Position numbers and translations under genes: made by a program. Shown here one piece after another: positions 1,910 through 10,560 of a stretch of DNA of 13,090 nucleotides (positions are counted from its first letter, which is position 1; the number at the start of each line of letters is the position of its first letter). The stretch lies in IMG/VR virus record IMGVR_UViG_3300029504_000072. One strand, written 5' to 3'. Under the pieces are notes generated by a model. That model searched no databases, was not told where the DNA came from, and saw only the letters and a list, made by a program, of their open reading frames with translations. This stretch comes from a virus (taxonomy: Duplodnaviria > Heunggongvirae > Uroviricota > Caudoviricetes).

Positions 1910-1913
1910 CTAA
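1910..1913. repeat. IS5 target-site duplication, left copy (CTAA)
   Basis: CTAA directly abuts the left IS5 terminal inverted repeat and is repeated at 3109-3112; IS5 makes 4-bp duplications at YTAR-like targets. Confidence 0.9.
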
Positions 1914-3108
<1,195 letters not shown>

Positions 3109-3112
3109 CTAA
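3109..3112. repeat. IS5 target-site duplication, right copy (CTAA)
   Basis: CTAA directly after the right IS5 inverted repeat, matching 1910-1913. Confidence 0.9.
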
Positions 3113-3173
3113 CATTTTAAATGTTGGAATCGCAACGTAGTTATTATCATATAACAGCTTGTTTCCTGATTTA

Positions 3174-3201
3174 GCCAGCCTCCCCAAAGGCTGGTTTTTT
3201 T
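3174..3201 (+). terminator. Rho-independent terminator (plus-strand orientation)
   Basis: Stem CCAGCC (3175-3180) / GGCTGG (3189-3194), 8-nt loop, then a T-run at 3195-3201. Lies between IS5 and the blc stop. Confidence 0.55.
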
Positions 3202-3229
3202 CTAATAAGTATCATTTCGGGTGGGGATT

Positions 3230-3754
3230 TTATTGTTTAACCCATAATAGTTCATTGACATTGAATCCCAACTTTTGAGCGGTACGCACATAGTCTGCTT
3301 TTACATTATCTGGAATAGTTTGGGTCCTTGCCAGAATCCATAGGTATTCTCTGTTCGGACCACTGACAAGAGCATACTTATACTCATCATCCAGCTTGAT
3401 TACATTATAGCCACCATAGAAGGGGCCAAAAAACGAAACTTTCAACGCTGCAGTTTTAGTATCTCCAGTAAAGTATGCTTTACCTTCGCTCTCGCTCCAT
3501 TTGTTTTTCGTTGGATCGTATCCACGGTTAAGTACGCGAATCCCTCCGTCGTTCCGTTTTTCATAAGTAGCGCTGACTTGTTCCAGACCACGTTCGAACC
3601 AGTTCTCGAGGCGAGCTATTTCATACCATTTTCCGAGGTAGCGGTTGGCGTCAAAATTTGTAATCGGCTGCACACCTTTAGGTGGTGTCGGGGCCTTACA
3701 TGCTATAAGAGTGAAAGAGAGTGCAATGCCAGTCAACACAGGCCATAACTTCAT
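3230..3754 (-). CDS. blc: Outer-membrane lipoprotein, bacterial lipocalin Blc family (divergent paralog)
   Basis: 174-aa ORF with lipoprotein signal and lipobox (MKLWPVLTGIALSFTLIAC); lipocalin motifs NFDANRYLGKWYEIARL and KVSFFGPFYGGYNVI...YLWILAR; roughly half of positions match E. coli Blc as I recall it. Confidence 0.85.
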   Translation of the reverse strand: MKLWPVLTGIALSFTLIACKAPTPPKGVQPITNFDANRYLGKWYEIARLENWFERGLEQVSATYEKRNDGGIRVLNRGYDPTKNKWSESEGKAYFTGDTKTAALKVSFFGPFYGGYNVIKLDDEYKYALVSGPNREYLWILARTQTIPDNVKADYVRTAQKLGFNVNELLWVKQ

Positions 3755-3946
3755 AATAAATCCTGTACTTTTGATAGTTGAGAGTAAGTATGAAAGATAG
3801 ATGAGTACGACCGATCACTTAAAGAACTTTCCTACTATATTAGGAATAGTCAATAACAGAAAAATTGTCAGTGATGAAGCCAGAAAGGCAATTTAGTCCG
3901 TGCACTACAAAGTTTATGTGTTAATGAATTAGTCAAGGGGGAGGAA

Positions 3947-4906
3947 ATGATAAAAAAACCTGTGATTGGGATCAGCGGTTGTTTGGGCGGTTCTGCTGTT
4001 CGTTTTGATGGTGGTCACAAAAGAGATGACTTTTTAATGGACAAATTAGTGGAATGGGTAACATTCAGACCAGTATGTCCGGAAATGGCTATAGGGCTGC
4101 CAGTTCCGCGTCCTGCTCTACGACTTGTGCGCTCGAAGCAAGGAAATATACGGATGTGTTTCAGCCACGACCAGAATGAGGATGTGACAGAGAGAATGAC
4201 AGAGTTTAGTCGTTCTTATATGGACAAATTAAAGGATGTATCGGGGTTTGTGGTTTGTGCTAAATCTCCCAGCTGTGGCATGGAGCGCGTGCGTGTCTAT
4301 GATGAAAATGGTAATCGAGGTCGTAAAGATGGAGTGGGACTATTTACGAGCACTTTGATGGAAAAGTTTTCCTGGCTACCGGTTGAAGAGGATGGGCGAT
4401 TACATGATCCAGTGCTTCGTGAGAATTTTATTGAAAGAGTTTTTGCTTTGCATGAGCTCAATCATCTTTACAAGGAGAAATTATCAAGAAGAGAGTTATT
4501 AGCTTTTCATAGTCGTTATAAGCTTCAGTTGTTGGCGCATAGCCAGGCAGGCTATAAAGATATGGGACCATTTGTGGCTGCAATACACGAGTGGGCGGAC
4601 CTTGAATCATACTTTGAGGTGTATCGTGATAATCTGATGGCGATTCTCAGAAAACCAGCATCACGTAAAAATCACACGAATGTGCTGATGCATATACAGG
4701 GGTATTTTAGTAATTACTTAAGTACACGCCAGCGTAAAGAGTTGAGCGAGGTTATACTTAACTATCGCTTTGGCACATTGCCTCTTCTTGCGCCGTTGAC
4801 TCTGCTGAAGCATTATCTGGGTGAGTATCCTAATGATTACTTGCTTACACAGAATTACTTCGATCCCTATCCGGAAGAACTGGCTCTAAGACTGATGGTG
4901 AATTAA
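3947..4906 (+). CDS. DUF523/DUF1722 two-domain protein (TudS-like Fe-S domain fused to YbgA-like domain)
   Basis: 319-aa ORF; strong RBS GGGGGAGGAA before the ATG. N-terminal motifs GISGCLGG...VRFDGGHK, VCPE and SPSCG match the Cys-containing DUF523 signature; the C-terminal half resembles YbgA-type DUF1722. Confidence 0.75.
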   Translation: MIKKPVIGISGCLGGSAVRFDGGHKRDDFLMDKLVEWVTFRPVCPEMAIGLPVPRPALRLVRSKQGNIRMCFSHDQNEDVTERMTEFSRSYMDKLKDVSGFVVCAKSPSCGMERVRVYDENGNRGRKDGVGLFTSTLMEKFSWLPVEEDGRLHDPVLRENFIERVFALHELNHLYKEKLSRRELLAFHSRYKLQLLAHSQAGYKDMGPFVAAIHEWADLESYFEVYRDNLMAILRKPASRKNHTNVLMHIQGYFSNYLSTRQRKELSEVILNYRFGTLPLLAPLTLLKHYLGEYPNDYLLTQNYFDPYPEELALRLMVN

Positions 4907-5312
4907 CTGTATGCGATATCATCTGAAAGTGATGAGTTCCTGTATGCAGGATATTTACAATCGTAAAAACTACGCTATGATGCTCATAGTGTCAGTTTTT
5001 ATAAAAATCCTGTTCACGCTAAAGAAAACATTGAGATGCAATTTAATGTTGGTAAACATACCAGCCCCAAACGATTTTATTCAATCTGTTTTTATATGAA
5101 GATATTTCAAGTGAATATTAAGAGTATATAATATTATTATTGCACGCAGCTATTATAATATAACAGATTAGTTTAATGATTTGTTTTTTGTGAGTTAAAC
5201 ACATGGTTTTATAGTTGTGATGCAATGAGATTTTCCTTATTGTTGAACTGGCGAATATTGATTTTCCACCTATACTTACCTGGTGTAACCCCAATGATAT
5301 CAGGTGGATAAT

Positions 5313-6026
5313 ATGCCATACATATGTTCTATCATTTTGGTGTTGAACTCGTTTGGTGTCCGAATTGGTAAAGAAGATATTTTGTTTAAAAAAGGAAATG
5401 CTGTCCTCATTGAATACAATTTAAAAGATCTTTTTTCGTCAAATACAGATCATCTAATGATCGTAGATGTTGAGGAGAAAACAGTTAATGATTTCTTTAA
5501 AAACTACACACTCTCACCTTTTTCTGTAAGAAGGTTTTATCCGTCATACTTGATAGTAGAATGTGAAGATTTTTCATTGTTAAGGAACTTGGTTGCATGC
5601 TTGAATTGTGATAGCAAAACCGTGGATGTAGTTAGAAATCAAATATCACTTGCATGTCTTGCTGTCTTATCTTCAGAGAAAATAGTGCAAAGTTTTTTGT
5701 TCGGAAGTCTTAATAGCTTAGGTTGTAAAGTTAAGGCTATTATTCACTCGGATATCTCAGCGTCATGGAGACTTTGTGATATATCTTCAAGATTATATAT
5801 GAGCGAGAGTTTGTTAAAAAGAAAATTAAAAGACGAAGGATTATCGTTTAGTAAATTAATTCTTGAAGAACGAATGATGATGGCGCAAAGATTATTGATC
5901 TACAGTAACCATACTGTCGGCAAGGTGGCGGGAATATGCGGGTATGACAATGCATCATATTTTGTAAGTGTTTTTAGAGGATATTTTGGTGTGCCTCCGC
6001 ACCAATATTTATCAAGATTTTCTTAG
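5313..6026 (+). CDS. AraC/XylS-family transcriptional regulator, AppY-like
   Basis: C-terminal AraC HTH (LLKRKLKDEGLSFSKLILEERMMMAQRLL...KVAGICGYDNASYFVSVFRGYFGVPPHQY); N-terminus MPYICSIILVL resembles AppY-type regulators. I place the start at ATG 5313 (RBS AGGTGG at 5302-5307) rather than the track's GTG 5304. AT-rich gene and upstream region. Confidence 0.8.
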   Translation: MPYICSIILVLNSFGVRIGKEDILFKKGNAVLIEYNLKDLFSSNTDHLMIVDVEEKTVNDFFKNYTLSPFSVRRFYPSYLIVECEDFSLLRNLVACLNCDSKTVDVVRNQISLACLAVLSSEKIVQSFLFGSLNSLGCKVKAIIHSDISASWRLCDISSRLYMSESLLKRKLKDEGLSFSKLILEERMMMAQRLLIYSNHTVGKVAGICGYDNASYFVSVFRGYFGVPPHQYLSRFS

Positions 6027-6094
6027 AAGATATGATGTGATGGCATTTTATAAAGTTATTTTTTGAAGTGTAAGATTATACGATATTTTTAGCT

Positions 6095-6126
6095 ACGCCA
6101 GAATAATTGCTGGCGTTTTTCTTTTT
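6095..6126 (+). terminator. Rho-independent terminator downstream of the AraC gene, upstream of the holin (possible tR'-like)
   Basis: Perfect 7-bp stem ACGCCAG / CTGGCGT (6095-6101, 6110-6116), 8-nt loop, then TTTTCTTTTT at 6117-6126. Confidence 0.65.
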
Positions 6127-6216
6127 GAATAGATGTTCGGGCCTTACGCTAATGTAACTTCTTTCCTTCTTCGAACCAAACCGTGTACACCATCCGTTAT
6201 CTGCGGAGGTGAGGCT

Positions 6217-6432
6217 ATGAAATCCATGGATAAGTTAACAACGGGCATCGCCTACAGCACCTCTGCAGGCAGTGCTGGCTACTGGTTTTTACAGTTGCTC
6301 GATAAAGTCACACCCTCACAGTGGGCGGCAATAGGTGTATTGGGTAGTCTGGTATTTGGCATGCTGACGTATCTGACAAACCTTTATTTCAAGATTAAAG
6401 AAGACAGGCGTAAGGCTGCGAGAGGAGAGTAA
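6217..6432 (+). CDS. Class II holin (phage 21 S-type pinholin) with dual-start motif
   Basis: 71-aa product [31 protein letters not shown]...[13 protein letters not shown]; two TM segments and a charged C-terminus; Met1 and Met4 starts (antiholin/holin); RBS GGAGGTGAGG at 6205-6214. The track's 99-aa ORF from 6133 carries an N-terminal extension with no RBS. Confidence 0.85.
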
Positions 6433-6436
6433 GACA

Positions 6437-6655
6437 ATGACTAAAAACTATGAACTGATTGTGAAAGGGACCCGCAATTTTGAGAATAAAGTTACGGTAA
6501 TCTTAACGTTACAGGACAAAGAACGTTTTGCCGGTGAAATTTTTGATCTGAACATCAACCTTGAGCGACTTGAAGGAGCTGGTTTGGATTATTATGAAGT
6601 TACTGCGGTAAAACATGCCAAACAGTTCTTGAGAGATTTGGCTGAAAAAATATAA
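6437..6655 (+). CDS. Hypothetical 72-aa protein between holin and endolysin (positional equivalent of Qin ydfR)
   Basis: RBS AGGAG at 6423-6427; soluble, no TM. Occupies the slot where Qin-like prophages carry a small gene between S and R; homology not verifiable here. Confidence 0.5.
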   Translation: MTKNYELIVKGTRNFENKVTVILTLQDKERFAGEIFDLNINLERLEGAGLDYYEVTAVKHAKQFLRDLAEKI

Positions 6656-6673
6656 AGCGGCATTACTGCCGCT
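6656..6673. terminator. Bidirectional hairpin between convergent small genes
   Basis: Perfect 7-bp stem AGCGGCA / TGCCGCT with 4-nt loop TTAC, starting 1 nt after the 6437-6655 stop. The A-rich plus-strand flank at 6644-6655 gives a U-tract for the minus-strand transcript. Confidence 0.5.
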
Positions 6674-6766
6674 TAGAAATTATTCAATGTCTGGTAGCTT
6701 ATCAAAGATTTCGGATACTCTTATATTTGTCATATAAGCAAATTGAGATTCTGCCAGCTCTTTGGG

Positions 6767-6976
6767 TTATTTTCCCGCTTTTTCTGAGCCAAAAATTGTT
6801 TCTAAAGCCAGCATGTTATATTTGAGAACCTCTTCTCGAGTTTTACCTGATAATTTTGCGGTAACAGCAATATAAAAAGGCAACACTTTATCCAGAAGGT
6901 CGTTGTGTTTTGTCAGTTGTGGTAATACCACATCAAGTTGCTTACTGATTGGTTTGAATGGATCTATACCGTTCAT
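6767..6976 (-). CDS. Hypothetical 69-aa protein, antisense to the lysis operon
   Basis: Minus-strand ORF MNGIDPFKPISKQLDVVLPQ...FGSEKAGK; AGGGA 8 nt upstream of its ATG (spacing long); ends at the shared hairpin. No family recognised. Confidence 0.45.
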   Translation of the reverse strand: MNGIDPFKPISKQLDVVLPQLTKHNDLLDKVLPFYIAVTAKLSGKTREEVLKYNMLALETIFGSEKAGK

Positions 6977-7080
6977 AGTTACATTCCCTTATCAGAGGTA
7001 ATCAGCCATCCCCCCTTTATTACACACGCCAGTATCCACCACTGACGGGCTGAGTGCTTAACATATCTAGAGATTAGAAA

Positions 7081-7099
7081 CTGATAAATCCTGATAAAT
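7081..7099. repeat. Tandem direct repeat CTGATAAAT(C)CTGATAAAT just upstream of the endolysin start
   Basis: CTGATAAAT at 7081-7089 and 7091-7099; a third copy of CTGATAA in inverted orientation (TTATCAG) at 6991-6997. All fall in the divergent intergenic region 6977-7103. Confidence 0.4.
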
Positions 7100-7103
7100 A
7101 TCC

Positions 7104-8131
<1,028 letters not shown>

Positions 8132-8314
8132 ATTAATATTAAATCGGATTATTTTTAGCGCTGAATGTGAAATTTAAATAAAAAGGACTCTTCCATGAGT
8201 CAAAATCCTTGAAATCTTAAGGGTAAGATAAAAGGTCATTAGACAGAATGACACGTTTTATTAATAAATAAAGCTATTGTTTCATTCGTGTGTTTTTCTT
8301 TACAAAAGTAATCC

Positions 8315-8391
8315 TTGCTATGGTTGGTTAATCATGCGTTAATGGTGTTCTGGTTTGTTACAAAATTATCTGAAGCAGTCATTGTTATAAT
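8315..8391 (+). promoter_or_regulatory. Candidate promoter region for the cold-shock gene
   Basis: cspA-like -35 TTGCTA (8315-8320) with 17-bp spacer to -10 GTTAAT (8338-8343), preceded by an AT-rich UP-like tract; alternatively an extended -10 TGTTATAAT at 8383-8391. Either gives a long (about 95-145 nt) 5' UTR. Confidence 0.35.
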
Positions 8392-8494
8392 TTTATTATT
8401 TGTACCTCTTGAGATTTCCTTGTTGGTTTTTCTCTCTGATATTTTTTTTCGGACCATTCTGCCCAAGGGCTAACTTCTTCAAAAGGTAATAATG

Positions 8495-8707
8495 ATGTCT
8501 AACAAAATGACTGGTTTAGTGAAATGGTTTAACCCTGAAAAAGGTTTTGGTTTCATCACGCCGAAAGATGGTAGCAAAGATGTGTTTGTCCATTTCTCAG
8601 CTATTCAGAGCAACGATTTCAAAACGTTAACTGAGAATCAGGAAGTAGAATTTGGTATTGAGAACGGACCTAAAGGCCCCGCGGCTGTTCATGTTGTGGC
8701 ACTTTGA
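8495..8707 (+). CDS. cspI: CspA-family cold-shock protein (CspI-like, 70 aa)
   Basis: Cold-shock domain with RNP1/RNP2 motifs ([16 protein letters not shown]); protein [20 protein letters not shown]...; RBS AAGG at 8483-8486. Start taken at the second ATG (8495), not the track's 8492. Synteny with rz, gnsB and terminase fits the Qin cspI context. Confidence 0.9.
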
Positions 8708-8906
8708 GGTAGAAAATATTACAAACCATATTCACTTTAGATGCCCGTGTTGCCATGGTTCTCAGTATAGAACATCATCTTTTGATGTTTCTGACAGGAA
8801 TCCTTTCGGGGCAAAATGTATCTTTTGTAAATCAATGATGATTACATTTGATAATATTTCACAATACTTAAATGTTAGCCGTCTGTCGTTAGATTTAAGA
8901 AAGTGA
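8691..8906 (+). CDS. Hypothetical Zn-ribbon small protein (Ogr/Delta-like Cys spacing), overlaps the cspI 3' end
   Basis: 71-aa ORF from ATG 8691 (17-nt overlap with cspI); four-Cys motif CPCC-x21-CIFC; followed directly by a strong terminator. No good RBS, so possibly translationally coupled or not a gene. Confidence 0.3.
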
Positions 8907-8913
8907 AAATGAA

Positions 8914-8934
8914 GGCTCCTTCGGGAGCTTTTTT
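8914..8934 (+). terminator. Rho-independent terminator with UUCG tetraloop
   Basis: Stem GGCTCC / GGAGCT (one G-U pair), loop TTCG, then a T-run through 8934. Confidence 0.7.
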
Positions 8935-8978
8935 GCTTAGTGTCTAGTCGATGGATACTCACATATTACGGTAACATT

Positions 8979-9209
8979 ATGAAAAAAATAATAGTTTTTT
9001 TTAACTCTGAACCAGCAATGGTAGTGCCAGTGATGACCGGAGTTAACACCATCATGCGTGAATATCCAAATGGCGAAACAACACACCTCACTGTAATGGC
9101 TGCAGGGTTTCCATCTCTGACCGGAGATCATAAAGTCATTTATGTAGCAGCGGATCGACATGTAACTTCAGAAGAAATTCTGGAAGCAGCAATGAGACTC
9201 TTGAATTGA
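8979..9209 (+). CDS. Hypothetical 76-aa protein between cspI and gnsB (YnfN/YmcE-position gene)
   Basis: ATG at 8979 (the track's ORF starts at GTG 8940); product MKKIIVFFNSEPAMVVPVMTG...; assigned by position only. Confidence 0.45.
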   Translation: MKKIIVFFNSEPAMVVPVMTGVNTIMREYPNGETTHLTVMAAGFPSLTGDHKVIYVAADRHVTSEEILEAAMRLLN

Positions 9210-9303
9210 TTTGATTCTAATGCATTGATAATAAATGATAATCATCTTTATCTGTTTGTGTGAAATTTAGACCGTCGTATGTTGATTATTGCGATGTTTC
9301 ATC

Positions 9304-9332
9304 TTATCTTTTATACGCTTGCTCCATATAAT
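9304..9332 (+). promoter_or_regulatory. Candidate sigma70 promoter upstream of gnsB-like gene
   Basis: Consensus -10 TATAAT at 9327-9332, about 50 nt upstream of the start codon; -35 is weak (TTATCT). Confidence 0.3.
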
Positions 9333-9381
9333 TGACACTACTGTGTACCAGGAAAGTCATAACAGACTAAAAGAGGAAATG

Positions 9382-9555
9382 ATGAACATTGAAGAGTTAA
9401 AAACAAAAACAGAAGCAGATATTTCTGAATATATAACAAAAAAAATCATTGAGCTTAAGAAAAAGACCGGGAAAGAAGTTACCAGTATCCAGTTTACTGC
9501 ACGGGAAAAAATGACTGGTCTTGAAAGCTATGATATCAAGATTGATTTAATCTAG
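9382..9555 (+). CDS. gnsB: GnsA/GnsB-family small protein (57 aa)
   Basis: MNIEELKTKTEADISEYITKKIIELKKKTGKEVTSIQFTAREKMTGLESYDIKIDLI; RBS AAGAGGA at 9371-9377. True start is the internal ATG (9382, or 9379), not the track's 9289. Confidence 0.8.
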   Translation: MNIEELKTKTEADISEYITKKIIELKKKTGKEVTSIQFTAREKMTGLESYDIKIDLI

Positions 9556-9615
9556 TCTGTTTAGTATTAGCATCAATTTCTCATCAGATGCTATTCAACA
9601 ATACAAATTACCCAT

Positions 9616-9640
9616 AAACCTCGTTTTTACGGGGTTTTGT
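9616..9640 (+). terminator. Putative intrinsic terminator after the gnsB-like gene
   Basis: Stem ACCTCG / CGGGGT (one G-U pair), loop TTTTTA, then TTTTGTTATATTT. Confidence 0.4.
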
Positions 9641-9848
9641 TATATTTAAACATTACCGAATAGGTATAAATCTCGATTGTCGATGGTATTGGTTGTGTGA
9701 CAATACCTAGTCTTTCCGGTATGCCTGAAGAGAATACAAACGACAGATTATGTAAGGGAAACGCGCTGAATCTTTAACTCTTTCATGCTGAGTGATTTGA
9801 CGTTATATTTTTAGCCGTAAGTGAAGAGCAAACGCATGGAGCGACATA

Positions 9849-10055
9849 ATGCATAAAGATCAATACACTGATGCCCCCTCCCAGGAGCAGGTTCGTGTAA
9901 AAACTATGCTTAATAGCACCATTTCGATGGGTTACCCGGATGTTGTAATTGCATGTATAGAACATCAAGTGTCTCTGGAAGCATTCAGGGCAATTGAGGC
10001 CGCGTTAGTAAAGCACGATAAGAATACGAAGGATTATTCCCTGGTGGTTGACTGA
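9849..10055 (+). CDS. Hypothetical 68-aa protein
   Basis: GGAG at 9838-9841, 7 nt before the ATG; product [40 protein letters not shown]...; no family recognised. Confidence 0.45.
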
Positions 10056-10399
10056 TCACCATAACTGCTAACCATTCTGACCATTTCACAAGTGACAGAG
10101 TCAATATCGTATTCTGTCACTGTCAGGCTAATACAGCAATGCAATTCAACTACAGCAATGCCTCGTATTTAGGTGAATTTACAATATCGTCCAGTTCGGA
10201 TGCCGGCTGCATTTCTGAAGATAAGGCATTTCGGTTCTCGTATTTTCCCCTCATGCTCGTCAGTCCTGCGCGTAGTAAGAGACAGGACACTCACACTAAT
10301 TTGTGTGGGCATGCTGTGATGTCCTTCTGAATTATCCCCATGCCATTATGTAAAGCTCTGTTACAGATGCTCGTCACGGTTGTCAGGCTGTCGGGTCCT

Positions 10400-10560
10400 C
10401 CCAGTGGGGGGCCCTGCCACGGGGCGGGAGCGTCGCGGAAAAAGGCTAGTTTTTGAAATTTTATTCGTCATCACCACTACTGTAATTGATTGGTATTACA
10501 GTGGTTTTATTTTTATGGTGTCGATTCTGATTGTTTTTTGTTCATCGCTAACACCGTTTG
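10400..10560 (+). other. Lambda-like cohesive-end site (cos), predicted cosN overhang GGGCGGGAGCGT at 10422-10433
   Basis: GC-rich CACGGGGCGGGAGCGTCGCGG in an AT-rich context matches lambda ACGGGGCGGCGACCTCGCGGG at 16 of 21 positions; downstream TTGAAATTTTATTCGTCAT echoes lambda cosB; 8-bp inverted repeat ACTGTAAT/ATTACAGT at 10479-10502; sits directly upstream of the terminase small-subunit gene as in lambda. Confidence 0.6.

Follow-up and report, generated by a model that had tools for sequence, protein, structure and literature searches.

A probable mobile moron cassette with a shared, structured 5' leader, set antisense between the lysis genes of a Qin-like Escherichia coli prophage

Results and discussion

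The DNA analysed in this study is the IMG/VR virus record IMGVR_UViG_3300029504_000072, a stretch of 13,090 nucleotides (nt) that is referred to here as the window and that is the late region of a Qin-like prophage of Escherichia coli. Its holin gene (S) and its endolysin gene (R) are separated by two small open reading frames (ORFs), one of 72 amino acids (aa) on the plus strand (6437-6655) and one of 69 aa on the minus strand (6767-6976), and both are located where an earlier reading of the letters alone (the original prediction) had placed them. It was found that the plus ORF is a gene of the YdfR family and that the antisense ORF probably belongs to a mobile moron cassette that is expressed from the prophage and carries a shared cis-regulatory leader. 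As recognised from conserved sequence and predicted pairing, this leader precedes at least 22 unrelated small-protein families in phages of Enterobacterales, across several genera.

As we infer it from the sequences, the interruption between S and R would have two parts. The first is the short-form YdfR-family gene, which would be read with the late operon. The second, the mobile antisense cassette, would begin with a sigma-70-type promoter and its upstream box, followed by a conserved structured leader of about 75 nt and then a small all-helical ORF, and would end in a terminator that works in one direction. In the lysogen the cassette would be transcribed independently, against the silent late operon, and the leader would set translation and/or mRNA stability by means of two hairpins, P2 and P3, and of a pairing between the P3 loop and the 5' end of the mRNA, after which the transcript would terminate at a hairpin within the final codons of the YdfR-family gene. 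Once lytic growth has begun, late transcription would pass this hairpin and would oppose expression of the cassette. The protein encoded by the cassette, its cargo, would be one of many interchangeable small proteins, most likely a protein-binding inhibitor that serves in exclusion, defence, counter-defence or regulation.

The structured leader

The leader of the window (Table 1) has many relatives. The exact 18-mer of its P3 loop is present in at least 120 viral contigs. When a profile of nine leaders was used with nhmmer, copies were found in viral contigs that had been retrieved with a loose pattern and in genome records of Pantoea, Xenorhabdus, Photorhabdus, Enterobacter and Escherichia sp.; a 16-mer scan of the genome collection gave mostly chance matches among the matches listed, and nhmmer then sorted out the true copies. 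A covariance model (CM), R1, was built from 17 sequences and gave 42 matches at E <= 0.01, 41 of them below 2e-6, so that the profile and the CM together locate the leader in more than 40 loci, and in 917 kb of unrelated control contigs there was no match to R1 better than E = 0.85.

In the 42-row alignment, 96.1% of the cells pair as against 25-46% in slid controls, both sides have changed in 33 cells belonging to eight pairs, and none of 500 shuffles reached any of the five measures of pair statistics. Compensatory changes were seen in four of the eight pairs of P2 (for example CAGUG/CACUG, CCAUG/CAUGG and CAACG/CGUUG) and in four of the five pairs of P3. Of 24 sequences put through an independent stem search, 23 had P3, in about ten versions of its stem, among them GGGGG/CCUCU, UGCGAG/CUCGCA, GAGGCC/GGCCUC and AUGGGG/CCCCAU. 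P2 is entirely absent from the Xenorhabdus/Photorhabdus class, and this loss fits the behaviour of a variable peripheral stem. Because G-U pairs are frequent, the structure is placed on the strand of the small ORF. In P3 a strand resembling a Shine-Dalgarno (SD) sequence pairs with an anti-SD-like strand directly 5' of the real SD, and the spacing of the leader to the SD and to the start codon is fixed. Almost no variation is seen in the P3 loop AUGGCUGA(UUA) or in the 5' UCAGCC, the two are complementary to each other, and this loop/5' pairing (P1) may give the leader an H-type pseudoknot topology.

No match to the leader was found in Rfam 15 at E <= 10 for the window or at E <= 1 for eight other loci, and a literature search turned up no paper with the leader core sequences and none that describes such a shared leader, which is apparently previously undescribed. 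A leader repressed by CsrA, which would have one GGA motif in a hairpin loop and another overlapping the SD, was also considered. In most copies GGGAUGG opens the P3 loop and the SD includes AAGGA; the first GGA is missing from several copies (L011 and L041 among them), and CsrA would leave the invariant UGGCUGA unexplained. A leader peptide, which in the window would be read from the P3 loop as AUG GCU GAU UAC CUC UGA, was rejected because the stop codon is not conserved in other copies; the SD-like box also lies merely 1-2 nt from the AUG in the P3 loop.

The spacer, its promoter-like elements and the endolysin start

The 127-nt spacer between the antisense ORF and the endolysin gene (6977-7103) contains CTGATAA three times, at 7081 and 7091 on the plus strand and at 6989 on the minus strand, just as the original prediction had noticed, and the tandem CTGATAAAT pair that two of them form is exact. 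In the whole window CTGATAA occurs seven times where 1.9 are expected, and 3 of 200 shuffles reach seven. The proximal copy corresponds to an upstream box, the distal copy to a -35-like element, and the third copy to the linker between P3 and the SD of the antisense gene (Table 1). The spacer is conserved 5' of the family of the antisense gene at every site where this gene is found, and it is also kept 5' of a different, 79-aa antisense gene at the ydfR-R site of strain NC101. Among the 42 leader copies TATCAGG stands at a fixed -41/-42 (once -40) in 29, and the -10 element of the copies is TAAGGT- or TATGTT-like. A putative sigma-70 promoter of the minus gene can be placed on this basis at 7060-7097. 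A LexA (SOS) box, CTGT-N8-ACAG (CTG-N10-CAG), was tried as an explanation of the upstream box and rejected, the spacing being N9 (CTG-N9-CAGG). The left half of the box is CTG in the copies that have it and ATG in the window.

Outside the S-R gap (L011, L133, L135, L047, L079, L080 and others) the box of the cassettes lies within CTG-N9-CAGG, as in TACTGTCTGAATATCAGG, where it forms the inverted repeat CTGAT-N5-ATCAG. In these cassettes an intrinsic terminator in the direction of the late operon directly precedes the leader box, and it could insulate the late genes downstream or could end a short late-sense RNA that is antisense to the promoter region.

The original prediction had asked whether the repeats abutting the endolysin ATG act on endolysin translation. 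There is indeed no SD ahead of the ATG at 7104, and the proximal CTGATAA copy overlaps the SD-less start context ATAAATATC(C/T)ATG. This context is the same in K-12 Qin, mEp460, TW14359 and NC101, which have no cassette or a different one, and the SD-less start, judged from these relatives, is a family trait in an ordinary context. The repeats belong to the conserved control region of the antisense gene and do not look like an element of endolysin translation. The ATG-proximal copy alone is conserved before R, and the distal copy is degenerate in relatives (TCGATAAAC, CCGATAAAT). In K-12 Qin the stop codon of ydfR overlaps the start of the endolysin gene (ATGA) and in the window this overlap is gone; such an overlap would allow translational coupling of the SD-less rrrQ in K-12 Qin, and the coupling is absent in the window and in mEp460.

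The antisense gene and its terminator

The frame of the antisense ORF is real, but its 69 codons are only the front of a 98-codon frame that reaches 6680 and that is broken by an in-frame TAA at 6767-6769 (codon 70), where relatives have TCA (Ser). The read-through product matches phrog_25324 over positions 1-98 of 98 with 201.9 bits compared to 140 for the truncated product. Strain 13P460A differs from the window by a single base in 1505 bp, at position 6768 (G there, T here), and this restores Ser70. An unbroken gene of 98 aa is found in phage Evi, in RefSeq WP_001013163.1 and in more than 50 genomes of E. coli. By its sequence, the antisense ORF of the window is a nonsense-truncated pseudogene.

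When 5.8 billion clusters were searched, the 98-aa family was found to comprise 16 proteins of 57-133 aa, mostly 98-100 aa, and a profile search of 1.8 billion representative proteins gave only six clusters of it. Since residues past codon 70 are conserved and the nonsynonymous-to-synonymous ratio (pN/pS) is 0.11-0.27, with synonymous sites near saturation, the family is truly coding. The 98-aa protein was modelled with AlphaFold2 (AF2) as four helices at a predicted local distance difference test score (pLDDT) of 84.7. It had no usable match in Pfam, NCBIfam, PADLOC or the PDB sequence profile, and its fold had no specific relative in PDB or BFVD. In the anti-phage defence profiles of PADLOC-DB 2.0 there was no match for either window protein or their partners.

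The hairpin that the two ORFs were thought to share as a perfect 7-bp stem is real; its stem is of 8 bp, AAGCGGCA/TGCCGCTT, it is GC-rich with a 4-nt loop, and it folds at -16.1 kcal/mol (z = -3.5). A terminator scan showed a T-run after the hairpin on the minus strand only and nothing T-rich after it on the plus strand. Therefore the hairpin is not shared as a terminator but ends the minus gene alone, and late transcripts, having no U-tract there, are not stopped at it. The 98-aa frame ends 5 nt ahead of the terminator stem, and the final codons of the plus ORF, GAAAAAATATAA, are complementary to the U-tract. The loop (6663-6666) reads TTAC on the plus strand of the window and GTAA in Evi, with differences at 6663 and 6666 only; on the cassette strand it is GUAA, a GNRA loop, in the window and in Cronobacter and UUAC in Evi. 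The sequences compared suggest that the hairpin loop was inverted by template switching.

The YdfR-family gene

The plus ORF covers positions 1-72 of the 93 positions of the PF07041 (DUF1327) profile with 92.3 bits against a gathering cut-off of 25, and its SD, AGGAG, is located within the end of the holin gene. It does not have the full-length DUF1327 architecture (a 93-position profile and proteins of 103-116 aa). In the AF2 model (pLDDT 82) there are strands at residues 5-13, 18-27 and 33-43 and a helix at 50-71, and the protein is the N-terminal beta-beta-beta-alpha domain alone. This short form is not debris, because forms of 71-72 aa that end in LAEKI* recur in Cronobacter (71 aa) and in the 58-member cluster P0024, and pN/pS between E. 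coli and Cronobacter is 0.30. In the variant P0022 (99 aa, 16 members), Ile72 and the stop of the 72-aa DUF1327 ORF are replaced by Tyr, and its frame continues through the terminator hairpin, antisense over the 3' end of the 98-aa gene.

The window protein and K-12 YdfR share 58% identity. The two are alike in their locus (essQ-ydfR-rrrQ) and in the N-terminal domain and unlike in that the window protein stops at residue 72, without the C-terminal helix and tail; also unlike K-12 ydfR, the last codons of the window ORF double as the U-tract of the antisense terminator. Genes of the YdfR family occupy the S-R gap in K-12 Qin, mEp460, Stx phages and many other phages, and DUF1327/YdfR is a common occupant of lysis cassettes of the S21 type. 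Of the two small morons that had been proposed, the plus ORF is therefore a regular gene of its locus and only the antisense gene is moron-like. It was reported in 2026 that residues 1-72 of K-12 YdfR bind the N-terminal domain (catalytic half) of RNase E, and RNase G, in two-hybrid assays, that Strep-YdfR pulled down Rne1-598 and RNA, and that few transcripts were altered by overexpression of ydfR in K-12 (PMC13232886).

Cargo diversity, placement and mobility

In all loci taken together there are at least 139 leader-bearing units with 94 distinct cargo sequences, which fall into 22 clusters without a BLAST link (E < 1e-4). The cargo is mostly of 63-99 aa and helical, and also includes DUF1883 and an aspartyl-protease-like protein. 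Outside the 98-aa family, DUF1883 and a weak aspartyl-protease match were the only identifications, all PHROGs being of 'unknown function', and when ten cargo and partner proteins were compared with PADLOC-DB 2.0 a single chance-level match (E = 0.007) was obtained. Of the 94 units, 72 are flanked by long ORFs that lie mainly on the opposite strand and none by long ORFs mainly on its own strand; in the other 22 such flanking ORFs are mixed or absent. Two of the loci have two leader cassettes each: in L047 (IMGVR_UViG_2582580856_000003) they are at 2252-2325 and 4304-4377, about 2 kb apart, and one drives a 73-aa helical ORF and the other a 154-aa aspartyl-protease-like ORF; the Photorhabdus locus L216 is the other.

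The 98-aa family itself is found at S-R, post-Rz (after an Rz-type lysis-gene fragment), H-M, M-L, I-J and Q-S, always antisense, that is, at six or more positions of the late operon, and in E. coli, Escherichia sp., Serratia, Cronobacter and metagenomes. Conversely, when prophages are compared, at least four cargo genes (98, 79, 87/91 and 104 aa) are found at the ydfR-R site. K-12 Qin and mEp460 have R immediately after ydfR, whereas the window, Evi and NC101 have an extra antisense gene there. The GC content is 0.35-0.40 over 6500-7000 compared to 0.47-0.545 in S and R. The suggestion that the antisense gene has an unrelated moron function is supported, the gene being absent from K-12 Qin and mEp460, AT-rich, and equipped with its own terminator and a promoter-like region. 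Between the window and Evi there are only 4 differences in 6373-7267 as against 36 in S and 39 in R, from which it follows that the cassette moves by recombination in the flanking lysis genes.

The convergent partner genes

Wherever the flanking sequence is long enough to tell, the gene of the 98-aa family stands opposite a small sense ORF. In E. coli and Cronobacter this ORF is the short form of DUF1327, and in five other contexts it encodes a protein of 93-99 aa that we call B-type and that has the pattern xFxVxFP...LxIxYxEdy...RAExxA. When the 86 distinct units with at least 400 nt downstream were examined, the partner was of the DUF1327 type in 7 and B-type in 22, 57 had no partner of either kind, and the association follows the cargo family (6/6, 5/5 and 5/5 in three families). 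A genuine DUF1327 protein of 76 aa (36.5 bits) is the partner of a 94-aa cargo outside any lysis cassette, where its neighbours are a glycosyltransferase-like gene, HNH and terminase. Homology between DUF1327 and B-type proteins is suggested by their sequences but was not established, as hhalign gave a probability below 1% and then, with larger alignments, of 4-9% (P = 0.0036).

Alternative explanations

The place of the cassette between S/ydfR and R, with a promoter region that abuts the SD-less start codon of R, led to the original proposal of a lysis-timing device in which antisense transcription or the antisense protein tunes the expression of endolysin or holin, and head-on transcription could in principle disturb late transcripts. 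The same gene family and its upstream region are, however, also antisense in tail operons (H-M, M-L, I-J), at Q-S and post-Rz, so that their placement is not specific to lysis; the ydfR-R site itself harbours at least four different cargo genes across prophages; the start of R is equally SD-less in phages that lack the cassette; and the S-R insert of the window was found in only 57-58 of 5426 complete E. coli genomes, whereas S21-type lysis cassettes are near-universal. We consider a role in lysis timing to be improbable. The cassette-like pattern, with one conserved structured end, swappable cargo and many insertion positions, would also be expected if the conserved element were a DNA recombination site, similar to an integron attC or a transposon end, that moves cassettes and is not an RNA leader. 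This is very improbable, for the plentiful G-U pairs would become C-A mismatches if the other strand were the one that folds, the spacing to the SD and start codon is fixed and so is the distance of the -10 and -35-like elements, no recombinase is consistently adjacent in the loci that were read, and the comparison with Evi shows exchange within the flanking S and R genes. It is scarcely credible that the ORFs and repeats arose by chance in a decaying prophage and that nothing in them is functional. The prophage is degraded, the antisense ORF is truncated and the 7-mer enrichment is modest, but both genes are under strong purifying selection in relatives, an intact copy of the antisense gene is present in an isolated phage, and the leader has stayed conserved, with covariation, between genera whose synonymous sites are saturated. 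Chance is contradicted for the family and is partly true of the window copy, whose cargo is dead.

An unlikely explanation, though one with more in its favour, is that the convergent sense gene and the leader-bearing antisense gene act together as a two-gene module, in which either a YdfR-like adaptor of RNA and RNase E would have the leader mRNA degraded when the phage passes from lysogeny to lysis or the two genes would be an effector and its antagonist. The constant presence of a facing sense ORF in the 98-aa family, the way in which partner type tracks cargo family, and the pairing of DUF1327 with cargo outside lysis cassettes speak for such a module, as do the binding of K-12 YdfR 1-72 to the RNase E N-terminal domain and RNase G and the co-purification of RNA with Strep-YdfR (PMC13232886). 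Against it, two thirds of the leader cassettes have no such partner, DUF1327 and B-type are not demonstrably homologous, ydfR is alone in K-12 and mEp460, overexpressed ydfR shifted few K-12 transcripts, and the co-travel could stem merely from the overlap of the terminator with the last codons of the partner.

The independently transcribed moron cassette with a shared leader is the explanation that we favour, and several points weigh against it. The P1 pairing, UCAGCC/GGCUGA, never covaries and is supported by complementarity and conservation only. Two of the three retrieval patterns contained the P1 motifs; leaders that were retrieved by protein homology alone keep both motifs, which means that their invariance is not solely an artefact of retrieval. 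The alignment used for the pair counts had been fitted to the P2/P3 structure of the model, the fold of the single leader is no more stable than that of shuffles (z = -0.09), and a generic sigma-70 promoter scan made no call at the site of the minus gene. With no informative relative of the cargo protein in sequence or in fold, any function given to it is a guess. Finally, since the cargo is truncated and the prophage decayed, the window copy may not function today.

Comparison with known systems

Lambda bor and HK97 gp15 are morons of lambdoid phages, bor being opposite to the late operon, and classical morons have been described as independent, unrelated units. The cassette resembles the lambdoid morons of Hendrix and Juhala in being an extra gene between late genes that are adjacent in relatives, in having its own terminator, a promoter-like region and a distinct base composition, and in that it may oppose the late operon as bor does. 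It is unlike them in that here the whole control region (box, promoter and leader) is common to at least 22 unrelated cargo families. Pseudoknotted leaders close to the SD are known from the preQ1-II and SAM-II riboswitches and from the translational operator of T4 gene 32. The moron leader is like these in its compact core by the ribosome-binding site, its variable peripheral hairpin, its anti-SD-like strand, and its complementarity of loop and 5' end with an H-type pseudoknot topology (the pairing being predicted here); it is unlike them in that it has no match in Rfam 15 and its cargo has no common metabolic theme. Like integron gene cassettes, it offers interchangeable small cargo on a conserved structured element, but here the element is 5' of the gene and not a 3' attC, has promoter-like hexamers and RNA-type G-U pairing, and in the moron-cassette loci that were read no integrase or recombinase is consistently adjacent. 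The transcription factor-small ORF (TF-smORF) modules of plasmid-like prophages, mainly in Vibrionaceae, encode small proteins that act as antirepressors (Silpe et al. 2023, PMC10432266). These modules also combine hypervariable small proteins that lack homologues with a shared regulatory logic, sometimes beside late genes, but theirs have an adjacent, divergent transcription factor gene, whereas here none is adjacent and the shared element is the leader with the promoter region.

Neighbouring genes and state of the prophage

Table 1. Features of the S-R interval and adjoining lysis genes, in coordinates of the window
Feature	Position	Strand	Basis or remark
S21-type class II holin (pinholin family)	6217-6432	+	PF04971, E = 2.3e-34; essD in identical RefSeq records
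Short-form YdfR/DUF1327 gene, 72 aa	6437-6655	+	PF07041, E = 2e-26
Intrinsic terminator of minus gene	6645-6674	-	Stem 6655-6674, U-tract 6654-6645
98-codon phrog_25324 gene ('X'), pseudogene here	6680-6976	-	Frame, profile match, single-base difference
Conserved structured 5' leader (predicted)	6977-7055	-	CM R1 match 6982-7055, 77.5 bits, E = 1e-19
SD of minus gene, AAGGGA	6990-6985	-	AUG 6976-6974
Linker between P3 and SD	6995-6989	-	Third CTGATAA copy
P3 hairpin (predicted)	5' strand 7014-7010, 3' strand 6998-6994	-	Covariation; loop AUGGCUGAUUA 7009-6999
GGCUGA in P3 loop	7007-7002	-	Complementary to 5' UCAGCC
P2 hairpin (predicted)	7047-7027	-	Covariation
Leader 5' UCAGCC	7053-7048	-	Complementary to GGCUGA
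-10 TATGTT (putative)	7065-7060	-	Conserved distance from leader
-35-like TTATCA	7087-7082	-	Distal CTGATAA copy; 16-nt spacer to -10
Upstream box TATCAGG	7096-7090	-	Proximal CTGATAA copy
Endolysin, phage lysozyme family	7104-7637	+	PF00959, E = 2e-23; RefSeq annotation rrrQ
Rz-like i-spanin (DUF2514)	7634-8131	+	PF10721

Two RefSeq chromosomes match positions 6133-7637 with 100% identity, and about 50 others match them with 99.9%. The endolysin has a hydrophobic, signal-anchor-like segment at its N-terminus. Inside the Rz gene, in the +1 frame, the ORF 7785-8081 has a lipobox-like segment, LTSCVPKQ, and is presumably the Rz1 o-spanin. A strong terminator-like hairpin with a 7-bp stem and a T-run is located at 6095-6116 on the plus strand, about 100 nt 5' of the holin gene, and its weak resemblances to Hrs12 and Esr41 in Rfam (E = 2.5-8.7) are due to the terminator.

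The prophage is a degraded remnant. At the left end of the window there is an integrase-family ORF (90-1184) and then IS5 with its transposase (1982-2962), and no Q antiterminator gene is present in the window. Strain S171-1 matches the window only from 1910 on, with 99.2% identity over 1910-10455, and in place of the left end of the window it has hokD-rem-ydfU-Q. The early region appears to have been lost beside IS5, and expression of the late genes is therefore improbable. Upstream of the holin gene, in the interval from IS5 to the lysis cassette (3230-6026), there are a lipocalin gene on the minus strand, a YbgA-type gene (2-thiouracil desulfurase and DUF1722) and a gene with an AraC-type helix-turn-helix; in the metagenomic locus L138 a YbgA-type gene is also located between Q and the holin gene.

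Conclusions

For the window itself the result is modest, namely a pseudogene in a decayed prophage beside an endolysin start of ordinary context, and this copy of the cassette is probably dead. What most deserves to be followed up is the shared structured leader, the many cargo genes that it precedes, and its recurrent pairing with YdfR-like genes. One may picture, though we think it quite unlikely, a two-part switch in which the leader tags the moron mRNAs of lysogeny and a late YdfR-like beta3-alpha protein (DUF1327 and perhaps B-type), acting with RNase E in a RapZ-like manner, destroys them at lysis; if this were true, YdfR would gain a function, and there would be a phage RNase E adaptor with an RNA tag common to dozens of cargo genes. 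With these findings YdfR/DUF1327, a very common yet unexplained gene of lysis cassettes that was recently linked to RNase E, gains a concrete partner in the genome and an RNA target that can be tested. Should the leader be a cis-regulatory RNA common to these cassettes, many orphan small genes of Enterobacterales phages would form one regulon-like class whose members would be found with a covariance model and not by protein homology, and this would give a handle on hypervariable prophage proteins that are candidates for roles in exclusion, counter-defence or antirepression.

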